From the IMG/VR virus record IMGVR_UViG_2596583652_000001, positions 64,001-114,107 of that record: a stretch of DNA of 50,107 bases. One strand, written 5' to 3'. The notes beneath the pieces are model-generated. The model was not told where the DNA came from, ran no database searches, and saw only the letters and a program-made list of their open reading frames with translations. A program made the translations under genes and the position numbers. Within the stretch, counting starts at the first letter, position 1. The number at the start of each line of letters is the position of its first letter. This stretch comes from a virus. Lineage: Duplodnaviria; Heunggongvirae; Uroviricota; Caudoviricetes. Positions 1,323 through 47,339 of the stretch are shown piece after piece.

Positions 1323-1359
1323 TTCCAGAGCGCGAGCGCTATAAGTGACAGAGCGCTTA
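1323..1359 (+). promoter_or_regulatory. Phage-type promoter overlapped by operator
   Basis: TTCCA-N11-CTATAA (1323-1344); operator TAAGTGACAGAGCGCTTA 1342-1359. Confidence 0.65.
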
Positions 1360-1372
1360 TGAGAGTGATCTG

Positions 1373-2098
1373 ATGCCCTTGAATGACCAGGCCCCGATCG
1401 GCGAGATGGACCGCAGCTTGCCGATCGACGACGACTATGTGACCTACACGCTGAACCTCGGCAAGTTCCAGGACTTTGACCTCGGCCTGTTCGCCACCAA
1501 ATGGTTCGACTACCGGCATCTGACGCCTTTGCAGGCCACGCGCCTCTATACCGCCGCTCTGGAGCCCGTCTATCAGCGGATCTATGCCCGCGAGTTCGAT
1601 CGGGAGAAGGCCAAATACATCAAGGTGGCCGACCTCGATAAGCTGCTCGAGGGCCTGCGCCGCGGTGACTCCCACGCCAAGGCGACCTTCACCGCCTGCT
1701 GGCGCGGCCGACAGGTCGCCGACGCGCTCGGTATGCCCTACGAGATCTATCTCGACCTGATCGTGAGCGCCCGGCTCCGGCGCTGGCAGCGCACGCAGAT
1801 GCCGCGCCCGCAGCACCTCTACCACGAGTATGACGTCGAGAAGGTGCAGCTGCGCTGGGAGGAGATGCAGGCAAGCGACCTCTATCTCGCCGAGCACCCG
1901 GCCTACATGGTCCAGAACTACCAGGGTGCCCTGCACCAGAACGACTACCACGAGTGGCTGATCAAGCAGGCCAGGCTGCGCCAGAACACCGCCTATTACA
2001 TCGCCCGCTTCATCGATGAGGACCGGCTTCCTCTCGACAAGGTCAGCTCGCGGCTCGAGCCTCACCTGTTCGAGCAGGTCACAAGCTACCTGCAGTAA
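1373..2098 (+). CDS. Conserved phage-plasmid hypothetical protein preceding the helicase (possible helicase loader or replication accessory)
   Basis: 241 aa, TKWFDYR motif; position upstream of dnaB-primase recalled from SSU5-like elements; function not established. Confidence 0.6.
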   Translation: MPLNDQAPIGEMDRSLPIDDDYVTYTLNLGKFQDFDLGLFATKWFDYRHLTPLQATRLYTAALEPVYQRIYAREFDREKAKYIKVADLDKLLEGLRRGDSHAKATFTACWRGRQVADALGMPYEIYLDLIVSARLRRWQRTQMPRPQHLYHEYDVEKVQLRWEEMQASDLYLAEHPAYMVQNYQGALHQNDYHEWLIKQARLRQNTAYYIARFIDEDRLPLDKVSSRLEPHLFEQVTSYLQ

Positions 2099-2167
2099 CC
2101 CATCAGCGTTTCGCTACAATTGAGACAGTGTATTGCACGTCTCGCCTTGTAAGTGAGTGCATACTTA
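2098..2167 (+). promoter_or_regulatory. Promoter and operator of the dnaB-primase operon
   Basis: ACCCA-N11-CTACAA (2098-2119); operator TAAGTGAGTGCATACTTA 2150-2167 abutting the AAGGAG RBS. Confidence 0.7.
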
Positions 2168-2180
2168 AGGAGTTGAGCTA

Positions 2181-3506
2181 GTGAGTGACGCTGAGGCTTC
2201 GGCTCAATACGATTTCGACGTTCAGTTCCAGCACAAGATCGCCTCGCTGCTGATGCGTGACAGCGTGTTTGCGATGCGCACCAAGGATCTGATCAAGCCG
2301 GAATACTTCGCCGAGGCAGCCGTCGGCACGATGGTCGGCATCGTCCAGGAGCACATCAAGGTTTACAAGACCGTGCCGGACATGAAGATCCTGCCCACGA
2401 TCCTGAAGGATGCCCTCGCGCGCAAGCGCATCCGGCCCGACATGCTCGACGGCATCAAGGCCATCATCCGCGAGGCGATGACCGCGGATCTCTCGAATCC
2501 GGATTTCGTGACCGACAAGGTCGCGAGCTTCGCCAAGCACCAGGCGATCGAGCAGGCCATCATGGCCTCGCTCCCGCTGCTGGAGAAGGGCGAGTTCGAC
2601 AAGATCGCCCAGCTGATGAAGGAAGCCGGCCAGGTCGGCGCCGTTCTCGATGGCGGCGATTACGACTACTGGCAGGAGATTGGCAACCGCACCCAGCTGC
2701 GCAAGGACCTGGCCGCCGGCAAGGTGGTGCGCAACGGGATCACGACCGGCTATTCCGAGATCGATGGTCTGCTGTTTCACGCGGGCTGGGGTCGCAAGGA
2801 ACTCAGCTGCATGATGGGGCCGGCCAAGGCCGGCAAGTCGATGTCGCTGGGCGACTTCGGCAAGAATGCCGCGCTCGCCGGCTACAATGTGCTCTACGAC
2901 AGCCTCGAGGTCGCCAAGGAGATCATCGCCGACCGCACCGACGCGGCGCTGACCAGCACGCTGATGCGCGAGCTTCACAAGTCGGCCGATGATGTCGATC
3001 GGCTTGTCCGCGCCGCTGCGACGCGCGCAGGCCATATGAAATTCCGCGATCACGCCTCCGGCACGCTCAAACCCTCGACGCTGCACCGGCTGATCGAGGA
3101 TTATCGCTCGGACGGCATCATCTTCGACCTGGTGATTGTCGACTATGCCGACATCATGGCTGCGGAGTATCGCTCCGACAGCCTCCAGGAGAACCTGCGC
3201 ACCATCTACATCGACCTGCGCGCGATCGCCCACGAGTTCAACATCGCGCTGCTGACAGCGACCCAGACCAACCGTGACGGCGCCAAGGCGGTTACGGCCA
3301 AGGCGACCGACGTCGGTGATGACTGGAACAAGGCGCGCACCGTCGACATCATGATCGGCATCAGCGCTACCGACGCGGAGAAGACCGCCGGCGAGGCGCG
3401 CCTGTCCTGGCTCCTGTCGCGCAACACCGAGGACGGCTTCTCGATCAAGATCCGGCAGGACCGCTCCAAGATGCAGTTTCTCACCAAGGTGCTGGGGCGC
3501 ATCTGA
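2181..3506 (+). CDS. dnaB: DnaB-like replicative helicase
   Basis: GPAKAGKS Walker A, LYDSLE, VIVDYADIM Walker B, TATQTNR; GTG start after AAGGAG. Confidence 0.9.
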   Translation: MSDAEASAQYDFDVQFQHKIASLLMRDSVFAMRTKDLIKPEYFAEAAVGTMVGIVQEHIKVYKTVPDMKILPTILKDALARKRIRPDMLDGIKAIIREAMTADLSNPDFVTDKVASFAKHQAIEQAIMASLPLLEKGEFDKIAQLMKEAGQVGAVLDGGDYDYWQEIGNRTQLRKDLAAGKVVRNGITTGYSEIDGLLFHAGWGRKELSCMMGPAKAGKSMSLGDFGKNAALAGYNVLYDSLEVAKEIIADRTDAALTSTLMRELHKSADDVDRLVRAAATRAGHMKFRDHASGTLKPSTLHRLIEDYRSDGIIFDLVIVDYADIMAAEYRSDSLQENLRTIYIDLRAIAHEFNIALLTATQTNRDGAKAVTAKATDVGDDWNKARTVDIMIGISATDAEKTAGEARLSWLLSRNTEDGFSIKIRQDRSKMQFLTKVLGRI

Positions 3507-4624: not shown

Positions 4625-4669
4625 CGCTCACATCTTTCCTCGCTCATTCCACTGAGCGTCGCGCTATAA
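4617..4669 (+). promoter_or_regulatory. Operator and promoter of the WGR/ligase operon
   Basis: Operator TATGTTAGCGCTCACATC 4617-4634; TTCCA-N12-CTATAA 4647-4669. Confidence 0.6.
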
Positions 4670-4690
4670 ATCAAGCAACAGAAATGCTCG

Positions 4691-5260
4691 ATGAGCAGGA
4701 ACGCAGCAATGTCGACCTATCCGATAGCAGTAGATAGCGTCGCCCTTGAGCACAAGGGTGGCACGAAGGCGTATTATGTCACCCGCATCTCGACCAATGA
4801 CGGGAGACATCTCCTCGTCAATCGATGGGGAAAGGTCGGCGTCTTTGGTGAGGTCCAGGTCTTCAAGTTCACCGACAGAAAGACGGTCGAAAAAGAGTTC
4901 GAGAAGAAGATTCGCGCCAAGCGCACGGGTGGTTACGAGCTCAAGGCGAACGGCTCTGGATTGCCCAATCATGGCGCCGCAACCTTCGTGGCCTCCGACG
5001 CGCAGGAGCTCGTCAAGAAGCTCACCGTTCCCCTGTTCGACAAGCTCGGCAAGGACGCCATCAGCTTCCTCGACCCCGCGATCGACACCTCCCGCATGCG
5101 CGAGGCTGAACCTCCTCAGCTCGACGAGGAGGGTCGCAAGATCAATCGCAACACGGCGCGCAAGGCCGATCTGTCCGACGCGATCGCCGCCGAGAAGGAG
5201 GCCGAGCGCAAACAGGTCGAGCAGACCTACGCCAGCAATCCGCTCTTCGGGAGGTTCTAA
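4691..5260 (+). CDS. WGR-domain protein
   Basis: KAYYVTRI...VNRWGKVG...EFEKKIRAKRTGGY pattern; C-terminal YASNPLFGRF tail; start may be 4709. Confidence 0.7.
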   Translation: MSRNAAMSTYPIAVDSVALEHKGGTKAYYVTRISTNDGRHLLVNRWGKVGVFGEVQVFKFTDRKTVEKEFEKKIRAKRTGGYELKANGSGLPNHGAATFVASDAQELVKKLTVPLFDKLGKDAISFLDPAIDTSRMREAEPPQLDEEGRKINRNTARKADLSDAIAAEKEAERKQVEQTYASNPLFGRF

Positions 5261-9117: not shown

Positions 9118-9163
9118 CCCGATCTGCGGGACAAAGCTCCGCCCTCCCTCGCCAGTGCGAGAG

Positions 9164-9193
9164 TTGACAAACCAGCGGTGATTCGGGATAAAT
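9164..9193 (+). promoter_or_regulatory. Sigma70 promoter for counter-transcribed RNA
   Basis: TTGACA (9164-9169)-N17-GATAAA(T), antisense to repC within its leader. Confidence 0.65.
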
Positions 9194-9713: not shown

Positions 9714-9731
9714 TATGTGTGCATTGACTTA
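9714..9731. promoter_or_regulatory. Operator between divergent RHH/repC and repressor genes
   Basis: TATGTGTGCATTGACTTA, overlapping a TTGACT -35-like hexamer. Confidence 0.65.
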
Positions 9732-9779
9732 CTTTCGATCTCTCATTAGGCGTAAGGGCATTCCTGCCTGCCTTTCTCG

Positions 9780-9802
9780 ACCCCACGACGCGCTCGCTAT
9801 AT
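9780..9802 (+). promoter_or_regulatory. Phage-type promoter of the repressor gene
   Basis: ACCCC-N12-CTATAT. Confidence 0.5.
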
Positions 9803-9851
9803 CTGAATTAATGAGACGCTCGAGCAACGAGAACAACGAGGAATTAAGAAA

Positions 9852-10307
9852 ATGAAGCGTTCCGGGAAGTCCGACACCTTGGCGGCCAAGCGCCTTAGCT
9901 TGCGCGATTTCGTAATCCAGCGGGTTGACGAGCTCAAGCCGCGGAAGAGCCAGAAGGACATCGCGGCCGAGGCGGGCTATCCCAGCCAGAACATGATCTC
10001 CCAGCTGAAGCTGGGCACCAGCAAATTGGCGATCGATCGCGTGCCCCTGCTCGCCAAGGCTCTCGACGTCGATCCCGCCTATCTGCTTCGCCTGGCTTTT
10101 GGGCAGTATTATACCGGGGAGACGATCGAGTTCCTCGACCAGGTCTACACCGGCCAGACCACAGATAACGAGCGCGAGATCCTGAACTTCATCCGAGAGG
10201 TTTCGGGCGATCGCGACCCCAAGCTGAACGAGGGCTCAAAGGCGCTGCTGCGCGAAGCGTTCGGTGTTGCCTCCGCCGATGAAGACACAACCGCCCAGAG
10301 CGCCTGA
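9852..10307 (+). CDS. XRE-family HTH transcriptional regulator (candidate phage repressor)
   Basis: SQKDIAAEAGYPSQNMISQLKLGTSKLAIDRVPLLAKALDV Cro/CI-type HTH; flanked by operator copies. Confidence 0.8.
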   Translation: MKRSGKSDTLAAKRLSLRDFVIQRVDELKPRKSQKDIAAEAGYPSQNMISQLKLGTSKLAIDRVPLLAKALDVDPAYLLRLAFGQYYTGETIEFLDQVYTGQTTDNEREILNFIREVSGDRDPKLNEGSKALLREAFGVASADEDTTAQSA

Positions 10308-10387: not shown

Positions 10388-10405
10388 TAAGTGACTAATC
10401 ACTTA
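10388..10405. promoter_or_regulatory. Operator with perfect 7-bp palindromic arms
   Basis: TAAGTGA-CTAA-TCACTTA. Confidence 0.75.
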
Positions 10406-10429: not shown

Positions 10430-10699
10430 ATGGCAGTGACGGAAGCGATTCCTACCGAAGCAATGATGGATCCTGCTGAGGCATACGAGTTGGCGTCGAC
10501 GCTCGTTCGCCAGGATCGGGTCGAGCTCGAAGGTGTTGATGTGATCAGTGGTTATCATCGGGAATGGGGTTTTGTGACCATCGTCATTCCTTCCTTTGGT
10601 CGGTCCCTCGTCGTCAAGCCTCTCGCAGGACACGATGCTTTCGATCACCGGGAGACATCTAGCCTTTTGCAGTCCAATATGCTCTCGCGTATTGATTGA
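10430..10699 (+). CDS. Small hypothetical protein
   Basis: 89 aa, AT-richer codons, directly downstream of the operator. Confidence 0.5.
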   Translation: MAVTEAIPTEAMMDPAEAYELASTLVRQDRVELEGVDVISGYHREWGFVTIVIPSFGRSLVVKPLAGHDAFDHRETSSLLQSNMLSRID

Positions 10700-13109: not shown

Positions 13110-13178
13110 CAGCACCTTAGCCGTCACGAAAGAATCTGGCGGGATTCGCATTTGGTCGCTTGTGACCCAAGCTAAAAG

Positions 13179-13196
13179 TAAGTATGTAGATACATG
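13179..13196. promoter_or_regulatory. Operator upstream of the cobS-like gene
   Basis: TAAGTATGTAGATACATG right after GCTAAAA. Confidence 0.6.
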
Positions 13197-13238: not shown

Positions 13239-14501
13239 ATGAGTGAAGCAGCGACCCTCGACGCCGCGCCGAGCGCGGCCGTCGTCCCTGCCGCCGTCAA
13301 TGACGGCAAGATCACCTGCCACATCGACAACGCCCGCGTGCATTCGATCCAGCGGCATATCGGCGATCACTATGCCGCCGAGTGGACGATCGAGCGCTAC
13401 AAGCAGGAATTCCCGGGCGAGCCGCTGCTCTCGCCGGTGGCCGAGCGGCTTCTCCAGGAGCGGGCTCAGGAGCGCGCCAAGCAGCAGGCGAGCGAGCAGG
13501 TTCCCCGTCAGCCGGCATCTCCCGCGGCGATTGCCGGCCTGGTGACCGCGGCGACCGCGCTCACGCCCAAGACGGTGATGCTCAACGAGGCGTTCGGCCT
13601 CGGCAATGCGTCAGCGGCCATGAATGGCGAAGGCCGGCCAATCCCGATCACGACGTTCACGGGGCATGACCGCGCGTCGCTCGACTATCTGCCGGATCTC
13701 GATGCGGACTTTGTGTTCAACATCGACCTGCTCAAGAAGGTCATCATCGGCTTCGAGCTGAACATTCCGACCTATCTCTGGGGCTTTCACGGCACCGGCA
13801 AGACGACGGTGCTCGAGCAGGCGTCGGCGCGCACCGGCCGGCCGTTCATCCGCGTCCAGCACACGATCAACATGCAGGAGTCCGAGGTGCTCGGGCAGTG
13901 GACCGTCAAGGACGGCGCCACGCACTTCCAGCTCGGCCCGCTGCCGATGGCGATGATCAATGGCTGGGTCTACTGCGCCGACGAATACGACTTCGCCATG
14001 CCGGCCGTGACCGCGCTCTATCAGCCGGTGCTCGAGGGCAAGGCGCTGCTCATCAAGGACGCGCCCCCGATGTTCCGGCGCATCGAGCCGCATCCGAACT
14101 TCCGCTTCGTCGGCACCGGCAACACCAACGGCATCGGCGACGAAACCGGCCTCTACCAGGGCACGCTCGTCATGAACGCCGCCAACTTCTCGCGCTTCGG
14201 CATCACCGAGGAGGTCACCTACAACGAAGCGAAGGTCGAGGAGAGCATCCTCATCAGCCGCACCAAGATCGACCGGGCGACCGCCTCGAAGATCGTCAAG
14301 TTCGCCAATGACGTGCGCAAGCTGTTCCGCGACGGCAAGATCTCCATGACGGTCTCGCCGCGTGAGCTGATCCGCGCCGCGCAGCTGGGCATCGCCTATG
14401 GCGCCAAGTGGCAGATCGGGCTCGAGCTCGCTTTCGCCAATCGTCTGTCCCGTGTCGACAAGAAGGCGGTGATGGAATTCGCGCAGCGGATCTTCGGCTG
14501 A
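13239..14501 (+). CDS. cobS: CobS/MoxR-like AAA+ ATPase
   Basis: LWGFHGTGKTT Walker A, YCADEYDFA Walker B, HPNFRFVGTGNT, SPRELI sensor; ATG 13239 after GGAG. Confidence 0.88.
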   Translation: MSEAATLDAAPSAAVVPAAVNDGKITCHIDNARVHSIQRHIGDHYAAEWTIERYKQEFPGEPLLSPVAERLLQERAQERAKQQASEQVPRQPASPAAIAGLVTAATALTPKTVMLNEAFGLGNASAAMNGEGRPIPITTFTGHDRASLDYLPDLDADFVFNIDLLKKVIIGFELNIPTYLWGFHGTGKTTVLEQASARTGRPFIRVQHTINMQESEVLGQWTVKDGATHFQLGPLPMAMINGWVYCADEYDFAMPAVTALYQPVLEGKALLIKDAPPMFRRIEPHPNFRFVGTGNTNGIGDETGLYQGTLVMNAANFSRFGITEEVTYNEAKVEESILISRTKIDRATASKIVKFANDVRKLFRDGKISMTVSPRELIRAAQLGIAYGAKWQIGLELAFANRLSRVDKKAVMEFAQRIFG

Positions 14502-15133
14502 TGCAGCGCCGGTTCAATCCCGCCGACAGCGCGAAGCAGATCAAGGCGTTCGCGGCTCGTGTGCATCGCCGGCTCAAGGCGGCCGGCGCTGCGTCCCACG
14601 CGGTCGAGGACGTCGAGCAGGAGCTGTGGTGCATCTGGTGCAAGGCGTGCGACGCCTATGACCCGACCCAGGGTGCGTCGTTCAAGACGTTCCTGCACAA
14701 GGGCATGCAGCTCTACATCAACCGCTATGTCGAGAAGCATGTCAGTCGGCGCCATGCCGAGGTGGTCGCTCTGTCGATCGATTACTCCTATGGCGACGAG
14801 GACGACAATGCGACGCTCGGCGACGCTGTCAGCGCCGGCGACAAGTCGGCGGAGGATGAGCTGGCCGAGACCGACCTGTTCGGCAAGGTCATCGATCGGC
14901 TCTCCGCGCGCGCCCGCCTGTTCGTGACGCTGCTGCACGAGGAGCCGGCCGAGCTCGTCAATGAGGTGAAGCACCTCGAGCAGAAGGGCGATTACGCCAG
15001 GTCGCGCGGCCTGCCCTTCAAACAGTCCCTGCGCGTGACCAGTCGCATGGTGTTCGAGCTCATGGCGGCCGACCACGCCGAGCGCCGGGCCATTCTGGAA
15101 GAGATCAATCATGTCACCCGAAAGCTCGCCTGA
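14501..15133 (+). CDS. Phage-encoded sigma70-family-like factor
   Basis: VEDVEQELWCIWCKACDAYDPTQGASFKTFLHKGM resembles sigma region 2; LSIDYSYGDEDDNATLGDAV and IDRLSARARLFVTL resemble region 3 to 4.1; TGATG-coupled to cobS. Confidence 0.65.
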   Translation: MQRRFNPADSAKQIKAFAARVHRRLKAAGAASHAVEDVEQELWCIWCKACDAYDPTQGASFKTFLHKGMQLYINRYVEKHVSRRHAEVVALSIDYSYGDEDDNATLGDAVSAGDKSAEDELAETDLFGKVIDRLSARARLFVTLLHEEPAELVNEVKHLEQKGDYARSRGLPFKQSLRVTSRMVFELMAADHAERRAILEEINHVTRKLA

Positions 15134-15671
15134 GACCATCGACACGAACGTTCCCGAGTTCGCGCCCGGGTGCTTCGGTTCCGCCCTCGCCTATCGCGAG
15201 ACGGACAGCATCTGCACGGCCTGCGTCTTCGCCGGGCGCTGCAAGCCGCTGCACCTGCAGGCCCAGGCGGCGTTGCGCGCGCGCTTTGGCATCGAGCTCA
15301 CCGAGACGCAGAAGCGCCGGATCCAGCGCGCAGCGAACCCGCCCGCGCATCCCGCGGAGATGACCGTGCCCAAGAAGGTCCAGGCGCTGATCGATCGCTT
15401 CGACAACACCAATTCCCGGGTGGCCGAGCAGCTGGGCCAGGGCGTCAATCCGTTCGCGACCACGCTGCCCTTCATGCGCATCGTCTGCCACCTGCTGCTC
15501 AATTACGCCAAGCCGATCGACCGCGGGCTGTTGGCGACGGCCTTCGCCTCGCGCCTCAACTGGCAGCAGGACACGGCCGAAGCCCATGCGCGCATGGCAA
15601 TCCAGGCTCTCACTCATATCGGCGCGGTCGACAATATCGACGGCGCGATCGCACTGCGGAGGATCGGCTGA
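15111..15671 (+). CDS. Conserved phage hypothetical protein with N-terminal Cys cluster
   Basis: PGCFGS...CTACVFAGRC; possible C-terminal winged helix. Confidence 0.6.
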   Translation: MSPESSPETIDTNVPEFAPGCFGSALAYRETDSICTACVFAGRCKPLHLQAQAALRARFGIELTETQKRRIQRAANPPAHPAEMTVPKKVQALIDRFDNTNSRVAEQLGQGVNPFATTLPFMRIVCHLLLNYAKPIDRGLLATAFASRLNWQQDTAEAHARMAIQALTHIGAVDNIDGAIALRRIG

Positions 15672-15951: not shown

Positions 15952-18900
15952 ATGCACTCGATCCTTGCCGCGCGCACCGACTTCTCGGTGGGCGAGTCCA
16001 TCCTGGGCACTGAGCGCCTGGTCGAGCTCGCGGTCGAAGCGGGCCAGAAGGCCGTCGCCATGACAGACACGATGAGTGTCACGGGCATGGTGGACTTCAC
16101 CAAGCGCACCAAGGCGGCCGGCCTCAAGCCGATCATCGGCACGCGGCTGCGCCTGATGGATGATCCCGCCTGGCGCCCGGGCACCGGCGAGAAGAAGAAG
16201 GACATGCCGCCGTCCTATTTCCTGACGGTCTATGCGCGCACCGAGGCGGGCATGAAGGGCATCTTCCGGCTGCTCACCCTCGCCAATTCCGAGGACCGCT
16301 TCTACTACGAGCCGAAGCTCGGCTTTGACGACCTGCGTAAGGAGCTGCGCGACCGGCTCACGCCTGACGATCTCGCTATCGTGCTGGGCGACGCGCACAG
16401 CGTTCTCACCCATCCCGACGCCGGCGTGATCATCGAGGACCTCAAGGCGGTCTGCGCCGATGTCTACGCGCCGCTGATCCCGGTCGACACGCCCTATTTC
16501 GGCCGGCTGAACCAGCTGGCGCTCGAAGCCTTCGGCACGCACCAGATCGAGCCGATCGTCATTCGTCCGGCCTTCTACGGCCAGGGCGAGGCGGACGCGC
16601 AGGAGATCATGAGCGCAATCACCGCCAACAACAAGGTCACCGACCCCTGGCACCGCTCGACCTTCAACCGCGACTTTCATGTGGTTGGCGAGGCGGCGCT
16701 CGGCGCTGAGGCGATGAAGGCGGCAAAGCATCTGCTGCGGCGCGGCGTCCCGGCTGTCGGCCCCGCGATCAGTCGCGGTCTGCGCAACACCGATCGCCTG
16801 GTCGCCAGCATCAGCTACGAATGGACCAAGGCGGAGCCGTCGCTGCCGAAGATGGCGGCCGACGAGTTCGCGGTCGTGGTCGAGGAGTGCAAGAAGGGCT
16901 TCAAGGAGCGCTTCGCCGCGCCGGTCTTCGGCCATCAGCCGAGCGCGAAGGAGCTGACGGAGATCTATCACCCGCGGCTTGTCTACGAGCTCGAAACCCT
17001 CAAGCGGCTCAATTTCTCCGGCTACTTCCTGCTCGTGCAGGACGTGGTGCAGTTCGCCAAGCGCTCCGGCATTCTCGTCGGCCCGGGCCGCGGCTCCGTC
17101 GGCGGCTCCCTCGTCGCCTATCTCATGGGCATTACCGAGTGCGATCCGCTGCGTTTTGGGCTGCTGTTCGAGCGCTTCATCAACCCCGACCGTATCGACC
17201 TGCCCGACGCCGACCTCGACTTCATGTCCGAGCGCCGGCACGAGGTGGTCGAGTATCTCGTCGCCAAGTATGGCCGCGACCGCGTCGCCGGTGTTTCCAA
17301 CTTCGGCACGCTGGCGGCTGCCTCGGCGATCCGCGATGTGAGCCGCGTCACCGGCATCCCCGAGAAGGACTATTCCGTCTCGAAATTCGTGCCCAAGCTG
17401 CACGGCGCTAATGTGCCCCTGCCCAAGTGCCGCGAGCAGGTCGGCGAGATCGACAGCTTCGCCAACCAGTATGCGCCGCTCTGGCCGATCATGGAGCGGC
17501 TCGAGGGCACGATCCGCAACTTCTCTCAGCACGCGGCCGGCATCGTCGTCGGTGGTGTGGATCTGGTCGAGCGCGCGGTCGTGGAGCGGCGCAAGGAAGA
17601 GAGCGTCGTGTGCTGGGACAAGCGCATCGTTGAGGATCAGGGCCTGATCAAGATGGACATTCTGGGCCTGCGCACGCTGGACCTGGTGAGCCAGGCGCTC
17701 GCCTACATCAAGGAGCGCACCGGCAAGACCGTCGATCTGCACCGCATTCCGCTCGATCACCCCGACGTGCTGGCGAACTTCGCCAAGGGCAACACGACCG
17801 GCATCTTCCAGTTCGAGTCCGGCGGCATGCGCCGGCTGCTGAAGGAGCTCGGCTCGGATGGCTGCATCACCTTCGACGACATCACGGCCGCGACCGCTCT
17901 CTACCGGCCCGGCCCGATGGAGTCGGGCATGATGGACAGCTTCTACAAGCGCAAGCAGGGGCTCGAGCATATCGACTACGACCATTCGCTGATGGAGCCG
18001 GTCCTGCGCGAGACGTTCGGCGTGATCGTCTACCAGGAGCAGGTCATGAAGATCTCCCAGGTGATCGCCGGCTACAGCGGCGCCGACGCCGACAAGCTGC
18101 GCAAAATCATGGGCAAGAAGCTGCCCGAGGAGATGCGCAAGGAGCGGCAGAAGTTCGTCGATGGGTGCGTGGCGACGATCGGGTGCGCCGAGGACTGGGC
18201 CGGGCGGCTGTTCGACAAGATCGAAGGCTTCGCGGGCTACGGCTTCAACAAGAGCCATTCGGTCGAATACACGCTGATCTCCTACCAGTCGATGTGGCTC
18301 AAGACCTTCCATAGCGTGGAGTTCTATGCCGCCGGCCTCACGCTCATGGATGAGGACAAGCTCCCTGCCCTGCTGCGCGACGCGGCCCAGGGTGGCGTCA
18401 AGGTGACCACACCCGACATCAACATCTCCACCAACCGCTTTGAGATCATCACCGACACCAGCCTCGCCATGCCCTTCCAGCGCATCAAGGGTCTGTCGGA
18501 GAAGACGACGAACGCCATTCTCGAGGCGCGTGCCGCCGGCCCGTTCGTGAGCAAGGAGGATTTCCTCGCCCGCGTCGAGAAGCGCCGCTGCAATGTCTCC
18601 CATCAGGCCAAGCTCGATCAGGTGGGTGCCTTCGCGCGCATCGAGCCCTCGCAGCCTGCAGCCGACGATCCCTCGCGCATCCGGGATCAGATTGAGCTTC
18701 TGCCCGGCCTGATCACCGCCAATGTGCCCGTCCAGCGCGACATGCACACCGACAAGGTGACAAAGGCGGCGATCGGGGAGCTGGTGGACGAGTATCGGGC
18801 GCAGTTCGGCCCGGGCGCCGAGGTCGTGGACGGCATGCCGGTGAAGCCCTCCTTCGGACGCACGGCGCGCTTCATGCTCGTGATGGACGCGCCCAATGGC

Positions 18901-19314
18901 GAGGAAGAGGGCGTCGGCATGATGGGATTCACGCGCTCCTCGGCGCCGATCATCGACGCGCTGGCTGTCGTGGGCCTCGACCGGGCGGACGCCTACTGGA
19001 CCTCGGTCATCAAGCGACCCAAGCGCGGCAAGCAGATCAGCCAGGAGGAGGCGAGCGCCTATTCCCCCTATCTCCAGCGCGAGATCGAGATCCTCAAGCC
19101 GCCCGTCATCGTGCTCTGCGGCTCCCAGGCTGTCCGGCTGTTCCTGCCCGACTTCAAGGGCAAGGCGTCCGACGCGGCCGGCAAGGTGGTCTACTCCAAG
19201 GAGTTCGAGGCCAATCTCGTCATCGGGTTCTCACCCGGGGAGATCTATTACGACGAGGACAAGCAGTCGAACATGAACGACGTGTTCGCCGCGGTCGCGG
19301 ATCTTCTTTCTTAA
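15952..19314 (+). CDS. dnaE: DNA polymerase III alpha-like (family C) with C-terminal uracil-DNA-glycosylase-like domain
   Basis: GPGRGSVGGS, FERFINPDR, PDADLDF, QHAAG, KMDILGL, GIFQFE, ALYRPGP, YQEQVM, GYGFNKSH; ATG 15952 after AGGAG. Confidence 0.95.
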   Translation: MHSILAARTDFSVGESILGTERLVELAVEAGQKAVAMTDTMSVTGMVDFTKRTKAAGLKPIIGTRLRLMDDPAWRPGTGEKKKDMPPSYFLTVYARTEAGMKGIFRLLTLANSEDRFYYEPKLGFDDLRKELRDRLTPDDLAIVLGDAHSVLTHPDAGVIIEDLKAVCADVYAPLIPVDTPYFGRLNQLALEAFGTHQIEPIVIRPAFYGQGEADAQEIMSAITANNKVTDPWHRSTFNRDFHVVGEAALGAEAMKAAKHLLRRGVPAVGPAISRGLRNTDRLVASISYEWTKAEPSLPKMAADEFAVVVEECKKGFKERFAAPVFGHQPSAKELTEIYHPRLVYELETLKRLNFSGYFLLVQDVVQFAKRSGILVGPGRGSVGGSLVAYLMGITECDPLRFGLLFERFINPDRIDLPDADLDFMSERRHEVVEYLVAKYGRDRVAGVSNFGTLAAASAIRDVSRVTGIPEKDYSVSKFVPKLHGANVPLPKCREQVGEIDSFANQYAPLWPIMERLEGTIRNFSQHAAGIVVGGVDLVERAVVERRKEESVVCWDKRIVEDQGLIKMDILGLRTLDLVSQALAYIKERTGKTVDLHRIPLDHPDVLANFAKGNTTGIFQFESGGMRRLLKELGSDGCITFDDITAATALYRPGPMESGMMDSFYKRKQGLEHIDYDHSLMEPVLRETFGVIVYQEQVMKISQVIAGYSGADADKLRKIMGKKLPEEMRKERQKFVDGCVATIGCAEDWAGRLFDKIEGFAGYGFNKSHSVEYTLISYQSMWLKTFHSVEFYAAGLTLMDEDKLPALLRDAAQGGVKVTTPDINISTNRFEIITDTSLAMPFQRIKGLSEKTTNAILEARAAGPFVSKEDFLARVEKRRCNVSHQAKLDQVGAFARIEPSQPAADDPSRIRDQIELLPGLITANVPVQRDMHTDKVTKAAIGELVDEYRAQFGPGAEVVDGMPVKPSFGRTARFMLVMDAPNGEEEGVGMMGFTRSSAPIIDALAVVGLDRADAYWTSVIKRPKRGKQISQEEASAYSPYLQREIEILKPPVIVLCGSQAVRLFLPDFKGKASDAAGKVVYSKEFEANLVIGFSPGEIYYDEDKQSNMNDVFAAVADLLS

Positions 19315-19317
19315 GCT

Positions 19318-19340
19318 ACCCAGCGCACGCGACGCTATAA
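19318..19340 (+). promoter_or_regulatory. Phage-type promoter without operator
   Basis: ACCCA-N12-CTATAA. Confidence 0.6.
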
Positions 19341-19366
19341 TTCAAGCGAGCAACAGGAATTCACGC

Positions 19367-19918
19367 ATGAGCGAAACCCCGACAACCGGCGACGCGGCCG
19401 CACAGCCGACCGTCTACCAGGTCCGTGACTACATCGACGCCGCGCAGATGAAGCGCGATCTGGCGTTCAGCACCAATGACCTCACCACGGCGATGATGGA
19501 GCAGTCCGCGCTGTTCTCCCATTACGGCGTTCTCGCCGCCCAGGCATCGCACCAGGTGGATGTGGTGAAGATGCTGCTCGAGAACACCGAGGCGGCGGTC
19601 TACAAGGCCGAGCGCGACCGGCTGGCCAGCTCCGGCGAGAAGTTCACCGAGACGCTTCTGGAGAAGATTGTCTCGCGCCACTCGCGCGTCATCTCCATGA
19701 AGAAAGCCCTCAACGAGGCCAAGCGCATCGAGTCCATCGGCAAGATCGCGGTCGAGGGCTTCCGGCACCGGCGTGACATGCTGGTGCAGCAGGGCCTGAT
19801 CTCCCGCGAGGAGATGAAGGGCGAGCTCAAGATCGCCGAGCGCAACGTGCGCGAGGATGTCCAGGCCCAGCAGCGCGAGGCGGTGCTGCAGCAGATGGCC
19901 CAGAGAAACGCAGCCTGA
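19367..19918 (+). CDS. Helical protein, possibly a UvsY-like recombination mediator
   Basis: KFTETLLEKIV...LNEAK...EGFRHRRDML pattern; between the polymerase and SSB. Confidence 0.5.
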   Translation: MSETPTTGDAAAQPTVYQVRDYIDAAQMKRDLAFSTNDLTTAMMEQSALFSHYGVLAAQASHQVDVVKMLLENTEAAVYKAERDRLASSGEKFTETLLEKIVSRHSRVISMKKALNEAKRIESIGKIAVEGFRHRRDMLVQQGLISREEMKGELKIAERNVREDVQAQQREAVLQQMAQRNAA

Positions 19919-19922
19919 CGAA

Positions 19923-19965
19923 ATCTCTGTTTCGCTGCGCTATAATGTAAGTGACTGCATACATA
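19923..19965 (+). promoter_or_regulatory. Promoter plus operator
   Basis: ATCTC-N12-CTATAATG then TAAGTGACTGCATACATA (19948-19965). Confidence 0.65.
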
Positions 19966-19987: not shown

Positions 19988-20212
19988 ATGCCCAACCCCT
20001 TCAAGCGCCCGGCCAACGTCGACACCATTCTCGCGCCGATGGCCAAGATCGTCGCCAAGCTGAACGCCTTCGCCGAGAAGAGCCGCGCCACGGCGGATGA
20101 GAAGGCCGTCGAGGCCAATCGTCTGCGCGACGAGGCCGACGCCTGCCGCTTCGAGGCGGCCCGCGCGGAGCGCCTCAGCAAGAAATACGGCTCGCTGGTC
20201 ACCGGCGACTGA
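19988..20212 (+). CDS. Small coiled-coil hypothetical protein
   Basis: 74 aa, RBS GAAAGG, own promoter/operator. Confidence 0.6.
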   Translation: MPNPFKRPANVDTILAPMAKIVAKLNAFAEKSRATADEKAVEANRLRDEADACRFEAARAERLSKKYGSLVTGD

Positions 20213-20226
20213 GCGCAAATCGCGCA

Positions 20227-20249
20227 ATCCCGCGCAAATCGTGCTATAC
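20227..20249 (+). promoter_or_regulatory. Phage-type promoter of the SSB gene
   Basis: ATCCC-N12-CTATAC, embedded in three GCGCAA(A)TC repeats (20213-20240). Confidence 0.55.
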
Positions 20250-20287
20250 ATAAATAGCTAACTACAGTTTTCTGTATCAGCGGCACG

Positions 20288-22499: not shown

Positions 22500-22517
22500 T
22501 GAGTGAGCAATCACTCA
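22500..22517. promoter_or_regulatory. Operator upstream of recA
   Basis: TGAGTGA-GCAA-TCACTCA, perfect 7-bp arms. Confidence 0.7.
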
Positions 22518-23996: not shown

Positions 23997-24499
23997 GGAA
24001 AGCTCCCGGCTTCACGGCCGGGAGCACAACGATAAGGAACGGCACTTTGAAAGACTTTTCGGCTCAGTTCGACGCGGGCACATACTTCGGCCACAGCACT
24101 TTATTCGCCGGCACGGCGAACACGGAGTCGTTGGTGGTCCACGTTGCCGCGCCCACGGAGAAGGCTGCTCTTGATGCGGTTCATGGCGTTTACGGACATT
24201 TGGTGAGCACCAGAGAACTGTCCAGCAAGCTCACACCGCCTGTTATCGTTCAAGTTCACCCGTCCGGGCCGGATGAGATTTCGGTAGTCGCGGCAAGATT
24301 GCATTATATCCTGGGCTCCATCCGAATTCTGGCGATCTTGCGGGAGGAGATTAATGGGGCCACGACTGGCGTGTCTGTGGTGGCGGAAGACGGCGAGCGC
24401 CGGCGGGTGATTATGATGACTTCGTCATCACAATTCGCCGATGCCAACAAATACATCAGCCCCTGGGCCGTATATCAGGAAGTGCTCAAGCACTTCTGA
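23993..24499 (+). CDS. AT-richer hypothetical protein (true start may be TTG near 24047)
   Basis: Open 168-codon frame with atypical codon usage; AAGGAAC RBS before TTG AAA GAC. Confidence 0.4.
   Translation: MRKAPGFTAGSTTIRNGTLKDFSAQFDAGTYFGHSTLFAGTANTESLVVHVAAPTEKAALDAVHGVYGHLVSTRELSSKLTPPVIVQVHPSGPDEISVVAARLHYILGSIRILAILREEINGATTGVSVVAEDGERRRVIMMTSSSQFADANKYISPWAVYQEVLKHF
24002..24026. terminator. GC-rich hairpin after the recA operon
   Basis: GCTCCCGGC-ttcacg-GCCGGGAGC; U-tract only on the minus strand side. Confidence 0.4.
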
Positions 24500-24509
24500 T
24501 CCCACGCAC

Positions 24510-24532
24510 TCCCCTACCCCGTTCTGCTATAA
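24510..24532 (+). promoter_or_regulatory. Phage-type promoter
   Basis: TCCCC-N12-CTATAA. Confidence 0.55.
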
Positions 24533-24562
24533 ATGAATTTGACGACGCAGAACGGGGTATTC

Positions 24563-25394: not shown

Positions 25395-25405
25395 ACCCGC
25401 GCTCA

Positions 25406-25448
25406 ATCCAAATGCGCACGCGCTATAACGTAAGTGAGTGCATACATA
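25406..25448 (+). promoter_or_regulatory. Promoter plus operator of the sbcDC operon
   Basis: ATCCA-N12-CTATAACG then TAAGTGAGTGCATACATA (25431-25448). Confidence 0.72.
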
Positions 25449-25806: not shown

Positions 25807-26900
25807 TGATCTACGGCGTCGTCTCCGACATTCACTGCCATGCCTGGTCCCTGTTCTCGCGCATCAACCCCGATGGCGTGAACTCGCGCCTGCGCATCAC
25901 GCTCAATGAGCTGGAACGCGCCGCAACTGTCGTGCTTGCCAATGGCGGCCGCACGCTGGTGATCCCCGGCGACATTCTGCACACGCGCGGCACCATCGAT
26001 CCCGAGGTGCTCAACCCGCTGCGCAAGACGATCGAGGGTATCCTCGACGACGGCGTGAGCATCTATGCCATCCCCGGCAATCACGACCTCAAGTCGGAGG
26101 ATTCCCAGGAGCTCTCGAGCGCCATCCAGAACCTGGCGCAGATCTCCATCGAGGGCGCGCAGTTCAAGATCTTCAACCGGGTCGATGTCATTGCGGTCGA
26201 AGGGCAACGCCTGGGCTTCGTGCCGTGGCGCAACCGGCGCGAGGATCTGCTGAAGGATCTCGAGACGCTCGCCAAGCAGTGCCAGAAGCCGGCCGAGACC
26301 GACGTGTTCATTCACGCCGGCATCGAGGGCGTGCTGCCGAACATGCCGGCCTCCGGCCTGACCGACAAGATCCTCGGCGACTTCGGCTTCCGGCATGTCT
26401 TCGCCGGCCACTACCACAATCACAAGGTCATGCAGCACGGCGTGATCTCGGTCGGCGCCACGACGCACCATAACTGGGGCGACGTTGGCAGTCGGGCCGG
26501 CTTCCTGCTGGTCGGTGGCAGCGCCGGCGCCGTGACGTTCCAGGACACCCACGCGCCCAAGTTCGTCGACGTGTCGGGCATGTCCGAGGAGGACATCCAG
26601 CTTGGATGCGACGGCAACTATGTCCGCTTCCGCGGGCCGCAGATGACCCAGCAGCAGATCACGGAGTTGCGCGAGCAGTTCAAGGACTGGGGTGCGCTGG
26701 GCACGTCGATCGAGGTCCCCCGGGCGATCGCAACGGCGCGCGCCGGGGCCCCACGCACGGCCGGCGTCTCGCTGGCGACCTCCGTCCAGCTCTTTGTCGA
26801 CGCCAGCGCCTCGATCCCGGCGCATGTCGACCGGGCCCGGGTGAAGGAGCGCGCGGCTGAGGTGCTCGCGGCCAGCCAGGCTGTCTACGAAGACGCCTGA
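25803..26900 (+). CDS. sbcD: SbcD/Mre11-like metallophosphoesterase nuclease
   Basis: SDIH, GDILH, PGNHD, FIHAG, AGHYHNH motifs. Confidence 0.88.
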   Translation: MMIYGVVSDIHCHAWSLFSRINPDGVNSRLRITLNELERAATVVLANGGRTLVIPGDILHTRGTIDPEVLNPLRKTIEGILDDGVSIYAIPGNHDLKSEDSQELSSAIQNLAQISIEGAQFKIFNRVDVIAVEGQRLGFVPWRNRREDLLKDLETLAKQCQKPAETDVFIHAGIEGVLPNMPASGLTDKILGDFGFRHVFAGHYHNHKVMQHGVISVGATTHHNWGDVGSRAGFLLVGGSAGAVTFQDTHAPKFVDVSGMSEEDIQLGCDGNYVRFRGPQMTQQQITELREQFKDWGALGTSIEVPRAIATARAGAPRTAGVSLATSVQLFVDASASIPAHVDRARVKERAAEVLAASQAVYEDA

Positions 26901-26954
26901 CGATATCCACGTATGTCTTTGATGATATAAGACAAATCGAAATCAGAGGCCGCG

Positions 26955-30400: not shown

Positions 30401-30412
30401 TAGCCCGGGCTA

Positions 30413-30455
30413 TTCCCTAGCTGCATCTGCTATAATGTAAGTATGCACTAACTTT
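30413..30455 (+). promoter_or_regulatory. Promoter plus operator
   Basis: TTCCC-N12-CTATAATG then TAAGTATGCACTAACTTT (30438-30455). Confidence 0.65.
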
Positions 30456-35314: not shown

Positions 35315-35337
35315 AACAATCTCGACACCCTGCATCA

Positions 35338-35380
35338 ACCCAAACTCGCACGCGCTATAACGTAAGTAAGCACATACATT
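35338..35380 (+). promoter_or_regulatory. Promoter plus operator of the thyX/dut operon
   Basis: ACCCA-N12-CTATAACG then TAAGTAAGCACATACATT (35363-35380). Confidence 0.7.
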
Positions 35381-39151: not shown

Positions 39152-39176
39152 GTATTTCCTCGCGCATCCTTCTGCG

Positions 39177-39224
39177 TCCCAAAGCAGATAGCGCTATAAA
39201 AGAAATGCAGTGAGCGCATACTTA
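39177..39224 (+). promoter_or_regulatory. Promoter plus operator
   Basis: TCCCA-N12-CTATAA; operator GCAGTGAGCGCATACTTA 39207-39224. Confidence 0.62.
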
Positions 39225-40697: not shown

Positions 40698-40743
40698 AAT
40701 CCCATCAAAAGATCCAGCATCGAAATCGAAGCGACCTGACGCA

Positions 40744-40781
40744 TCCCAACGTGCGCAGCGCTATAAGTATGTCATCACTTA
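40744..40781 (+). promoter_or_regulatory. Promoter plus operator of rIIA-rIIB
   Basis: TCCCA-N12-CTATAA; operator TAAGTATGTCATCACTTA 40764-40781. Confidence 0.7.
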
Positions 40782-43229: not shown

Positions 43230-43230
43230 T

Positions 43231-44460: not shown

Positions 44461-44477
44461 GCCGAGGAGGCCAGCCC

Positions 44478-44627
44478 ATGCGCCGCGTCATTCAGCACGC
44501 CGGTTCCCTCCTCTGCGCCCTGCTGACGATCGGCATCGTCGTCGCGGGTCTCTCCATTCTCGAAGCGATGCGCCGCGCCCCCATCGACTGCAGCGCCAGC
44601 TTCTCGACCAAGGAAATCTGCAAGTGA
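44478..44627 (+). CDS. Small membrane protein
   Basis: MRRVIQHAGSLLCALLTIGIVVAGLSIL...IDC...C; RBS GAGGAGG. Confidence 0.55.
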   Translation: MRRVIQHAGSLLCALLTIGIVVAGLSILEAMRRAPIDCSASFSTKEICK

Positions 44628-45445
44628 CCACCCAGAACATCGTAAACGACCAGGGCGAGCTCGTCGGAGAGCGTCGCATCGACCCCATCTATGGCGCCGT
44701 GCTCTCCGAGGAGCCGATCGCCGTCGGGCGCAGCACCGCCCTCACGGCCCTCGAGCGTGACGAACGCTATCGCAACACCGAGGCTCCCATCACCTACAGC
44801 TACGAGGTGTTCCAGAAGCCGCCCCGCGCCGGCCGCTACATGCACACCTCGAACGGGAAGAAATACTACCCGCTCGATCCCCGTGCCGAGGAAGTGCATA
44901 TCGAGGTCGTCGCCCATCACCTGGCGACCCGCGCGCGCTACAACGGCGCGACCCAGCATCCCGAGTTCGAGGACCGGATCTTCTATTCCGTCGCCGAGCA
45001 CTCGGTCCTCGTCTCCCACTACATCGAGTCAGTGCTCGGAAAGCCGGAGTTCGCCCTCGAAGGGCTGCTGCACGACGGCTCGGAAGCCTATAATGGCGAC
45101 CTGATCCGGCCGCTGAAATACGACCCGGCCTTCCGCGCGCCGTTCCAGCATGTCGAGGCGCTGAACGAGATCGCCGGCGCCCAGCGGTTCAATCTGCTCT
45201 ACCCCTACCCGGACGTGGTGAAGATCGCCGACGAGGCCGTCACTGCCGCCGAGGTCGAGCAGATCATCGTGACGGACCCGGCCGAGGACTGGTCCGGCAA
45301 GCTGCATGACGACAGCCGCGTCGCGCCGTTCCGGATCGACATGCTGCTGCCCTTCGCCGCCAAGCAGCTGTTCCTGCGGCGCTATGAGCAGATCATGAAG
45401 ACCCGGCATCTTTACCGCGCAGTCCCAAGCGCGCTCGCGCTATAA
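44624..45445 (+). CDS. HD-domain 5'-deoxynucleotidase-like hydrolase
   Basis: FYSVAEHSVLV, GLLHDGSEAYNGDLIRPLK, KIADE; GTGA-coupled start. Confidence 0.85.
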   Translation: MTTQNIVNDQGELVGERRIDPIYGAVLSEEPIAVGRSTALTALERDERYRNTEAPITYSYEVFQKPPRAGRYMHTSNGKKYYPLDPRAEEVHIEVVAHHLATRARYNGATQHPEFEDRIFYSVAEHSVLVSHYIESVLGKPEFALEGLLHDGSEAYNGDLIRPLKYDPAFRAPFQHVEALNEIAGAQRFNLLYPYPDVVKIADEAVTAAEVEQIIVTDPAEDWSGKLHDDSRVAPFRIDMLLPFAAKQLFLRRYEQIMKTRHLYRAVPSALAL

Positions 45446-45465
45446 TGTAAGTATGCGCTAACATC
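45423..45465 (+). promoter_or_regulatory. Promoter plus operator
   Basis: TCCCA-N12-CTATAATG then TAAGTATGCGCTAACATC (45448-45465). Confidence 0.68.
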
Positions 45466-45475
45466 AGGAGCACGC

Positions 45476-45697
45476 ATGCGAAGCGCCGACGACTGGCCGA
45501 GCCATGCCGAGGAGCTCGGCCGCAAGAGCCTCGAGGTGCTCGAGAAGTGGATGAAGGCTTACAACGCCGGGAAGATCACCCGGCGCGAGCTCTACATCCT
45601 TGTCTCGGGCCTCTACGACGCGATCAGCGGCCTGGCACCCAACGCGGATCTCGACGTCATCGGCGCGGTTCATCAGGAGCTGCGCACCAATGGCTAA
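45476..45697 (+). CDS. Small hypothetical protein
   Basis: 73 aa, RBS AGGAG. Confidence 0.6.
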   Translation: MRSADDWPSHAEELGRKSLEVLEKWMKAYNAGKITRRELYILVSGLYDAISGLAPNADLDVIGAVHQELRTNG

Positions 45698-46247
45698 GAA
45701 GTTTCTGAAGGACCGCTGGATCAAGGACGCGATCTCGCGCCGCTACATCATCCCGCGCGAGGACGGCACCATCCTGCGCTGCACGCGGGCTGATCCGGTC
45801 ACCGGCTTCCCGCTGTCCGAGGACTACCGGGAGATCGTGGTCCAGGTCCACAAGAAGTCGGGCCGGGTCTATTTCAACATGACCTACCGGGGCTTCACCA
45901 AGTCGTTGCTGGTCAACCGGGTGATCGCCCTCGCCTTCCTGCCGAACCCGTTCAACCTCCCGCAGGTGAACCACATCGACGGCAACAAGGAGAACAACGC
46001 GCTGCGTAACCCGGACGGGACGATGCAGCTTGAATGGTCCTCCGGCTCCGACAACGAGAAGCACGCACACCGCACCGGCCTCAAGTCCGGCCGCGGCTCG
46101 TCGAACGCCAATGCGAAGCTCGCACCGCACCAGGTGCTCGAGATCCGCTCCTCCATCGATCCCGTGGACGTGCTGATGCGCCGGTATGGCGTCAGCCGCT
46201 CCACGCTCAACAACATCCTCAAACGGAAAACCTGGACGCACATCTGA
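45690..46247 (+). CDS. Free-standing HNH endonuclease (I-HmuI-like) with C-terminal HTH
   Basis: VIALAFLPNP...VNHIDGNKENN...LEW...DNEKHA; NANAKL...YGVSRSTLNNI. Confidence 0.8.
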   Translation: MAKKFLKDRWIKDAISRRYIIPREDGTILRCTRADPVTGFPLSEDYREIVVQVHKKSGRVYFNMTYRGFTKSLLVNRVIALAFLPNPFNLPQVNHIDGNKENNALRNPDGTMQLEWSSGSDNEKHAHRTGLKSGRGSSNANAKLAPHQVLEIRSSIDPVDVLMRRYGVSRSTLNNILKRKTWTHI

Positions 46248-46486
46248 TGAAGAAGATCCTGATCGTCACCTCCGTCACCATCATCGCTCTCGGCCTCGCT
46301 GGCTGCGAGGATGGCTCCTATTTCAGCCCCAACACCACGCAGATGAAGTCCGACAAGGTCGGCCGCCTCGAAGCGACCGGCGAGGACGTGCGCGTCTACG
46401 AGTTCACGCCGCAGACCGCTCCGAAGAAGCAGTGCGCCTTCGTCGCCGGCGAGAACAAGGGCGGCCTCGTCTGCTGGGATAAGTGA
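46247..46486 (+). CDS. Small lipoprotein
   Basis: MKKILIVTSVTIIALGLAG-C lipobox. Confidence 0.7.
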   Translation: MKKILIVTSVTIIALGLAGCEDGSYFSPNTTQMKSDKVGRLEATGEDVRVYEFTPQTAPKKQCAFVAGENKGGLVCWDK

Positions 46487-46746
46487 TGACCAGTGAATGG
46501 AAGCTCGGCGACCGTGTCGCTATCAGCCCGTCGAGTGAATGGCACGCCGACTGGCGGGATTGGGCCGGCTATGTCTGCGAGCTCCATATGTGCCCAAGCG
46601 GCAAGATCGACGTTGGGGTCAGCAATCACTATCCGCCCAAGCACCTTGGCGACATCACGGACGGCTTTGAGCCGGTCGACCTGATTGCTGCTCCCGCTGA
46701 CGAAGCGGCCGGCGCGCAGGCTCAAGAACCCAGGAGCACGTTATGA
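46483..46746 (+). CDS. Small hypothetical protein
   Basis: 87 aa, coupled on both sides. Confidence 0.5.
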   Translation: MMTSEWKLGDRVAISPSSEWHADWRDWAGYVCELHMCPSGKIDVGVSNHYPPKHLGDITDGFEPVDLIAAPADEAAGAQAQEPRSTL

Positions 46747-47303
46747 TCCTCGCCGGCGTCGACATCGAGACAACCGGCCTGCTGGCCGCCGATCACCGGA
46801 TCATCGAGGTCTATATCGGCCTCTGGAACGGCAGCACCAAGGTGTTCAGCTTCGAGCAGCGCATCGACCCGCAGCGCGGCATCGCGGCCGACGCCCAGCG
46901 TGTCCACGGCATCAGCGCGAGCGACCTCATCGGGAAGCCCACCTGGGACACGGTCGGGCCTGCGGTCTTCAAGGTCCTCAACAAGGCGTCGATGTTCGTC
47001 TGGCACAATGGCGACGAGTTCGACGGTCCCTTCCTTGATCAGGAGCTCAAGCGCATCGGCCTGGAGCTGCCCAAGCGGCCGGCGATCGACACCATGGCGA
47101 ACGGCATATTCGCCACGCCCGATGGCAAGAAGCCGCGCCTTTCCGAGCTCTGCTTCGCCGCCGGCATTCCCTACGACGCCGCCCAGGCCCACGCCGCTGC
47201 CTATGATGTGGACGTGATGATGGAGGCGTTTCTGCGTATCCAGTCCTGGGGCGAGCACTTCCAGCTGCCTGCGCTGCAGGAAGGGATCTCTCTTGCCGCA
47301 TGA
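46743..47303 (+). CDS. dnaQ: DnaQ-like DEDDh 3'-5' exonuclease
   Basis: DIETTGL, HGIS, WHNGDEFD, IDTM, HAAAYD. Confidence 0.88.
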   Translation: MILAGVDIETTGLLAADHRIIEVYIGLWNGSTKVFSFEQRIDPQRGIAADAQRVHGISASDLIGKPTWDTVGPAVFKVLNKASMFVWHNGDEFDGPFLDQELKRIGLELPKRPAIDTMANGIFATPDGKKPRLSELCFAAGIPYDAAQAHAAAYDVDVMMEAFLRIQSWGEHFQLPALQEGISLAA

Positions 47304-47316
47304 CAATCCTGCCGCG

Positions 47317-47339
47317 TTCCAGAGCGCGAGCGTCTATAT
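47317..47339 (+). promoter_or_regulatory. Phage-type promoter
   Basis: TTCCA-N12-CTATAT. Confidence 0.55.

Follow-up and report, generated by a model that had tools for sequence, protein, structure and literature searches.

Fifteen operon starts in a 50,107-nucleotide stretch of phage DNA, hereafter called the window, carry a CC-containing pentamer shortly upstream of a CTATA or CTACA box and no TTGACA at the -35 position. Which proteins read such promoters, and which genes are switched on by them? The window comprises bases 64001-114107 of contig C18, a circular element of 114 kb (95-bp end overlap) whose host genome is alphaproteobacterial (4.5 Mb, 68% G+C). It contains replication, recombination and nucleotide genes of phage type, and repC lies on its minus strand. 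Its DnaE is 65-72% identical to that of the Rhizobium phages X66, B1VFA and RHEph10 and 36-43% identical to that of BUCTxx99, nickie and SSU5, and the gene order is the same as in X66. B1VFA and V1VFA-S are probable phage-plasmids (PMC12509600). The element is an alphaproteobacterial phage-plasmid of the RHEph10/X66 type, and its CC-box promoters are probably the sign of a system for switching genes, so far undescribed, in a large family of phages. We found no paper describing the control of lytic genes in this widespread group (RHEph10 and X66 in rhizobia, SSU5 and relatives in enterobacteria, nickie in Pseudomonas). Nor did we find a described promoter motif for SSU5, pHCM2, RHEph10, nickie, B1VFA or Cyrano, in a literature survey of incomplete coverage in which most papers were judged by title or abstract.

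A promoter class with phased CC boxes

The 15 sites come from an original prediction made on the window. All of them carry both elements on the plus strand, 12 bp apart (11 bp at 1323 and 2098), and all lie shortly upstream of genes on the sense strand. A strict form of the pattern matches the window 12 times; the mean over 100 dinucleotide-shuffled versions is 0.02 (maximum 1), and the host chromosome has 0.13 matches per 50 kb. The looser pattern used originally has 15 matches where 0.76 are expected. A matrix trained on relatives alone found 13 sites in the 114-kb element, all of them intergenic and 11 of them among the 15, where 0.7 would be expected at the host rate. CTATA occurs 27 times on the plus strand and twice on the minus strand. 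Positions are numbered here on the assumption that the T of TATAA is at -12. Among the sequencing runs listed as containing the element there was no RNA run, and the single DNA run may be the source sample. The predicted lack of TTGACA was confirmed: TTG at a spacing of 16-19 bp is found in none of the 15 sites. So was the likeness of the -10 to that of alphaproteobacterial RpoD, with TA at -12/-11 and no requirement for T at -7. The consensus, which had been given as CTATAA, has to be extended to GCTATAA, as G is present at -14 in 14 of the 15 sites. The class is genuine and conserved, and its members are almost certainly promoters. A loose match at 18055 inside dnaE was treated as chance.

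The main clue to the mechanism, overlooked in the original prediction, is that the boxes are tandem and helically phased. A second box, W-N-C-C-Y at -41 to -37, is present in 12 of the 15 sites (background 0.19, p=5.5e-7), and a weaker third CC peak lies at about -49. Box 1 stops 12-13 bp short of the -10, and the -35 slot is filled by the 6 bp that separate this box from box 2. The phasing also appears when sites are picked by their -10 alone. In C18 CC peaks at -28 (13/25) and -39 (10/25), whereas host intergenic sites are flat. Among 83 sites of relatives picked by GCTATA alone, C at -27 is found in 80, CC peaks at -28/-27, -39/-38 and -49/-48 with values near zero between, and G-33 and C-32 are enriched. 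One helical turn separates the peaks, so the boxes all face the same side of the helix.

CC-class promoters head replication, recombination, nucleotide and early operons and not virion genes; the two-box pattern was found in 11 of 21 early, 8 of 24 replication and 1 of 11 virion (late) upstream regions. At the left end of the window, on the plus strand like all sites named here, they precede ORF (open reading frame) 1373-2098 (1311-1345, an 11-bp variant with degenerate box 2), dnaB-dnaG (2086-2120, GCTACAAT, also an 11-bp variant), the WGR-ligase operon (4636-4670, TTCC in both boxes) and the XRE-like gene 9852-10307 (9769-9803). Further downstream they stand before ORF 19367-19918 (19307-19341), ORF 19988-20212 (19912-19946, with ATCTC as box 1 and a good box 2), ssb (20216-20250, without box 2), an ORF cluster at 24.5-25.4 kb (24499-24533), ORF 25459 and sbcD (25395-25429) and the ORF 30483 operon (30402-30436). 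The remaining ones precede ORF 35397 (35327-35361), ORF 39278 (39166-39200, three phased boxes visible), rIIA-rIIB (40733-40767), ORF 45476 (45412-45446) and a winged-helix paralogue discussed below (47306-47340).

In addition, the window contains two degenerate copies, and some 11 more sites are found in the early region beyond it. One of the two, not listed originally, lies before cobT (10661-10695) and has both boxes and a weak -10; the other lies before ORF 26955 (26894-26928), and both boxes are retained at the orthologous site of RHEph10 and X66. The early sites are located at C18 752-21200. Both of their CC boxes are well kept, the -10 is weaker and five have T at -7. They may be a subclass that is read by host RpoD.

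Dozens of rhizobial-type relatives have the same layout, and so does Pseudomonas phage nickie; in SSU5 it is weak, and in BUCTxx99 it is shifted towards the -10 by one turn. X66 has the class with GCTATAA, RHEph10 and N1_10 have it with CTATTC. For nickie, an unseeded motif search ranked CC-N-TAnAAT first, and CC peaks at -28/-27, -38/-37 and -49; the unseeded run is the valid one here, as the -7T count of the seeded run is partly circular. The CC signal of SSU5 is modest (8/45 at -27, p=0.001), and a seeded run converged on a palindrome (see below) instead of the boxes. In BUCTxx99 the peaks are at -19 (12/30) and -29 (7/30), and a Paracoccus relative retains the upstream box only. The Kluyvera, Xenorhabdus and Yersinia loci (23 kb each) are too short for judging CC boxes, and the 'Undibacterium' label of locus L094 is a bin assignment, which was not used as host evidence.

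Candidate readers of the boxes and the -10 element

From fold, distribution and repeat geometry we consider it likely that a phage winged-helix protein reads the CC boxes. The best candidate is ORF 15111-15671 (plus strand), here called P0004, which overlaps the gene of a phage sigma factor. It has a conserved N-terminal four-cysteine motif, and its model (predicted local distance difference test, pLDDT, 88) contains a C-terminal winged helix. The best structural matches are PerR/Fur proteins (Z 8.5, root-mean-square deviation 3.1 over 76 residues). Most of the matches ranked below them are other winged-helix domains, and MotA is absent among the fold matches listed. A sequence search with the family against solved structures gave nothing significant, and Foldseek on the PDB gave no match at E<=0.001. 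P0004 is present in X66, RHEph10, nickie and BUCTxx99, stands out among the proteins of unknown function shared with nickie, and was not found in 10 related host genomes. A paralogue with a related C-terminal winged helix (47395-48171, plus strand, phrog_5235; hhalign E 2.6e-4) is a second candidate box-binder. Its family occurs also in nickie and SSU5 and is the sole P0004-family member found in SSU5. C18 carries two copies of this paralogue family, the one just named and another at C18 19459-20316, and each lies behind a CC-class site. ORF 1373-2098, which is conserved across the group, is a further possible activator but gave no usable atlas match.

The adjoining ORF 14501-15133 (P0001, plus strand) is a real sigma factor (Pfam Sigma70_r2, E 2e-7). 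An hhalign comparison with host RpoD gave 95.7% over region 2, a 3.2-like linker and the start of region 4, which is remodelled; a single-sequence fold was poor (pLDDT 53) and was not used. The sigma gene adjoins that of P0004 in 43 of 44 loci, which are close relatives and not independent, and the 44th locus is cut. In P0071, P0142 and P0143 the two proteins are fused. These fusions belong to two lineages that are 33% identical, comprise 384-408 amino acids (L093:10001-11227, L135:10001-11188, L136:10001-11155) and are found in genomes that keep CC-class sites with GCTATA(G/A)T.

Region 2.4 of RpoD reads the upstream end of the -10. In a tree of the phage sigma, the eight loci with CTATT(C/A) form one clade (100/98) as opposed to 21 loci with CTATAA. 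That clade has lost R24, N74 and R75, the latter two of which align with RpoD region 2.4. Of the conserved positions, 4 of 32 in the sigma switched in this clade, compared with 34 of 1457 in a set of ten further genes (p=0.008). Both X66 and N1_10 have R. phaseoli as their recorded host and yet differ in their -10 type; thus host RpoD does not account for the difference. These data suggest that the -10 subtype follows the clade of the phage sigma and not the host species. The original prediction had named two options, the encoded sigma-like factor or an activator together with host RpoD. As the sigma is adjacent or fused to the candidate activator and the -10 subtype goes with the sigma clade, both options probably hold in combination, and activator and sigma probably act together in this lineage.

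A possible mechanism is as follows. The four-cysteine/winged-helix protein would bind the boxes head-to-tail, possibly along with its paralogue, and in this way would substitute for -35 recognition and recruit RNA polymerase. In the alphaproteobacterial lineage the adjacent phage sigma would read GCTATAA and work as a unit with the winged-helix protein, whereas relatives in which no sigma was found, nickie for example, would pair these boxes with a host-type TAnnnT -10. We give the full model, including the phage sigma, slightly less than an even chance.

Several points weigh against it. Adjacency and fusion of the sigma and P0004 may mirror a joint role at other promoters. The covariation of the -10 with the sigma is suggestive only, because it reflects a single evolutionary event and the test was post hoc, and cobT also has switches at 13 of 209 positions. 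Alphaproteobacterial RpoD accepts GCTATAA without T at -7 (PMC8407463). As to the box reader, a P0004 orthologue was not found in SSU5, where the paralogue stands alone, and the recognition helix in nickie differs from the alpha-type though the boxes are alike. The fold match of the P0004 model (Z about 8) indicates a winged helix, neither a target site nor an activator role. Both the binding of the boxes and the start sites are inferred.

The alternative that survives best is that P0004 or its paralogue binds the boxes and recruits the host RpoD holoenzyme in the manner of MotA or lambda CII, while the phage sigma serves other promoters. Nickie fits this well: it has the boxes and a P0004 homologue, and neither there nor in SSU5 was a sigma gene found with PF04542, phrog_351, phrog_3741 or the sigma's own family profile. 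The TAnnnT -10 of nickie is host-like, which makes a host-sigma model viable. Host TTG promoters, for which a TTG(A/C)C-17-TA peak was seen, also resemble the CC sites in having C or T at -13 and rarely T at -7 (4/31), and the geometry matches that of MotA and CII. Yet this leaves unexplained the fusions of sigma and activator as well as the two phages of one host species whose different -10 subtypes follow the sigma clade. Moreover, no other motif is left for the sigma, as several late promoters look like TTG-17-TAnnnT. We regard this alternative as rather unlikely.

The phage sigma alone could read both elements if its remodelled region 4 recognized GCA-N-YCC at about -33 to -27 across a short spacer. 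Region 4 does have an insertion and has lost the equivalent of E585, one of the residues with known roles in region 4 of RpoD, and both the enrichment of G-33/C-32 and the tracking of the sigma clade by the -10 would agree with such a reading, for which phiEco32 gp36 is a precedent (PMC12276001). However, nickie and SSU5 have the same boxes although the profile searches found no sigma in either, so that the sigma is unlikely to be the box reader; nor would one sigma4 domain explain repeats at three turns or the one-turn shift in BUCTxx99. Of the original interpretation, the phage-specific class without a -35 element is supported, reading by the sigma alone is weakened to a poor prospect, and an activator with host RpoD fits nickie and SSU5.

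Slightly more doubtful still is that host RNA polymerase, unaided or with a host factor (CarD, the C-terminal domain of the alpha subunit or a host regulator), uses a strong extended -10, the CC boxes then being a structural signal or one for a host factor. It speaks for this reading that the -10, with its G-14, is strong and that CarD dependence has been proposed for alphaproteobacterial promoters without -7T (PMC8407463). But CC phasing is absent from host intergenic -10 sites, and phages of both alpha- and gammaproteobacterial hosts retain the boxes. A plasmid-state prophage would also pay a high price for constitutive activity of its dnaE-linked, rII and nuclease operons, and about half of the sites have no overlapping palindrome. 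That the sites are not promoters at all, and instead serve replication, partition or packaging as binding sites or are AT-rich patches that arose by chance, is very improbable in view of their strict sense-strand orientation shortly before start codons, their conservation at orthologous operon heads and a -10-like core that changes with the lineage.

Relation to known promoter systems

By analogy of geometry, the CC class resembles T4 middle and CII-type promoters and appears to belong to neither. T4 middle promoters combine a MotA box with a sigma70 -10, sigma being appropriated by MotA/AsiA (PMC2988021). As there, a phage box takes the place of the -35 at 12+/-1 bp from the -10 (PMC2988021), many copies head replication and nucleotide genes, and the candidate activator is a two-domain protein of similar size. 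The original statement that a 12-bp spacing fits no sigma70 arrangement was therefore wrong, as a box ending 13 bp before the -10 hexamer occupies the position of the MotA box (PMC2988021). In contrast to T4, the box is W-Y-C-C-M repeated at 10-11 bp and not a single TGCTT, which is not seen in the CC class. Where MotA has a double-wing domain, the candidate combines a winged helix with a four-cysteine motif, and a phage sigma is probably involved.

The repeat of lambda CII is TTGC-N6-TTGC, and the CII box likewise ends 13 bp before the -10 hexamer. CII promoters have direct repeats straddling the -35, as summarized in PMC3335776 with reference to Jain 2005. The CC class is similar: two direct repeats 6 bp apart flank the -35 slot in 12 of the 15 sites, the lower one ending 13 bp before the -10. 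However, the repeat of the CC class is C-rich and not TTGC, it has an 11-bp period and a third box, it is found at about 30 lytic promoters as against three lysogeny promoters, and the candidate reader has a different fold. Activators of the PhoB/PhoP type, which also have winged helices, bind head-to-tail to repeats that recur every 11 bp in direct orientation and overlap the -35 (PMC3335776). The period is shared, and head-to-tail binding overlapping the -35 is predicted here; unlike these activators the candidate has no receiver domain and is phage-encoded, and the boxes are shorter and C-rich.

The sigma gp36 of phiEco32 works with the cofactor gp79 on middle and late promoters (PMC12276001). 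Similarly, C18 encodes a phage sigma of about 210 amino acids with sigma2, linker and sigma4-like parts and a second phage protein as its predicted partner. Whereas gp79 binds RNA polymerase and not DNA boxes, the fold of the partner here is a DNA-binding one, and fusions of it with the sigma exist. The promoter sequence is different, and the motif is not confined to genomes with the sigma, as boxes are present in nickie and SSU5. With alphaproteobacterial RpoD promoters the CC class shares a -10 with a CTA core and no preference for -7T (PMC8407463). It is set apart from them by the lack of a TTG -35 (0/15 sites) and by the phased CC boxes, which are absent from host promoters.

More broadly, phages of the SSU5, RHEph10 and nickie type may share an undescribed switch, in which a zinc/winged-helix protein on phased CC boxes serves as a detachable '-35 reader'. 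Depending on the lineage it would be combined with host sigma70 or with a dedicated phage sigma, the fusions being a sigma with an extra DNA-binding domain. We offer this generalization tentatively, as a possibility. If true, RNA polymerase would be redirected in a new way, by a sigma that relies on a partner for its upstream specificity and of which both fused forms and a variant of other -10 specificity occur naturally; the pair might also provide an orthogonal expression system for alphaproteobacteria. What the analysis offers is a promoter class, a family of candidate activators with 704 representatives at E<=0.001, and a cascade that can be tested.

A putative lytic cascade and neighbouring sites

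The CC-class sites would be the pre-replicative ('early/middle') lytic promoters of a phage-plasmid of the SSU5/RHEph10 type, which would be kept quiet as a prophage by a repressor on operator-like palindromes. Upon induction or derepression, host RpoD would fire a hybrid TTG promoter in front of the cobS-sigma-winged-helix-dnaE operon, and the resulting sigma and activator would then activate the CC-class promoters and perhaps also boost their own operon. The hybrid promoter (13160-13196, plus strand) has a TTG -35 at 13160-13165, a CCC box, a 17-bp spacer and the -10 at 13183-13188, with a palindrome (13179-13196) over the latter. A TTG-17/18-TA pattern before cobS is found in 34 of 40 related loci.

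The 18-bp palindrome occurs at 27 sites in the whole element. It is the top unseeded motif in C18, X66, RHEph10 and SSU5 and not in nickie, with lineage-specific versions in X66, RHEph10 and SSU5, and lies over the -10 or the start region in 7 of the 15 CC-class sites. Copies in the window accompany the CC-class promoters of ORF 1373-2098 (1342-1359, over the -10), dnaB-dnaG (2150-2167), ORF 19988-20212 (19948-19965), ORF 25459 and sbcD (25431-25448), the ORF 30483 operon (30438-30455), ORF 35397 (35363-35380), rIIA-rIIB (40764-40781) and ORF 45476 (45448-45465); others are at 342-359, 9714-9731, 10388-10405 and 22500-22517. In SSU5 (L003, L088, L089) a second palindrome with an AAACAA-TTGTTT core lies directly 3' of several CC-type early promoters. 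The XRE-like gene 9852-10307 is a repressor candidate; since it stands behind a CC-class promoter, it may encode a lytic-phase and not the immunity repressor.

Outside the window, upstream of C18 35766, 38529, 39507 and 49788, virion genes have TTG-16/18-TAnnnT promoters with the palindrome filling the spacer, so that late genes may be directly repressed or activated from there. In nickie (L086) late-region -10 elements upstream of 21623, 29071, 37200 and 39022 are preceded by TTGAC or GTCA(A) near -22 and not at -35; these are reminiscent of the -22 element of P1 late promoters. Finally, a canonical TTGACA promoter at 9154-9184 of the window is directed against repC, as it is in X66 and RHEph10, and is likely the promoter of an antisense RNA of the repC replicon.

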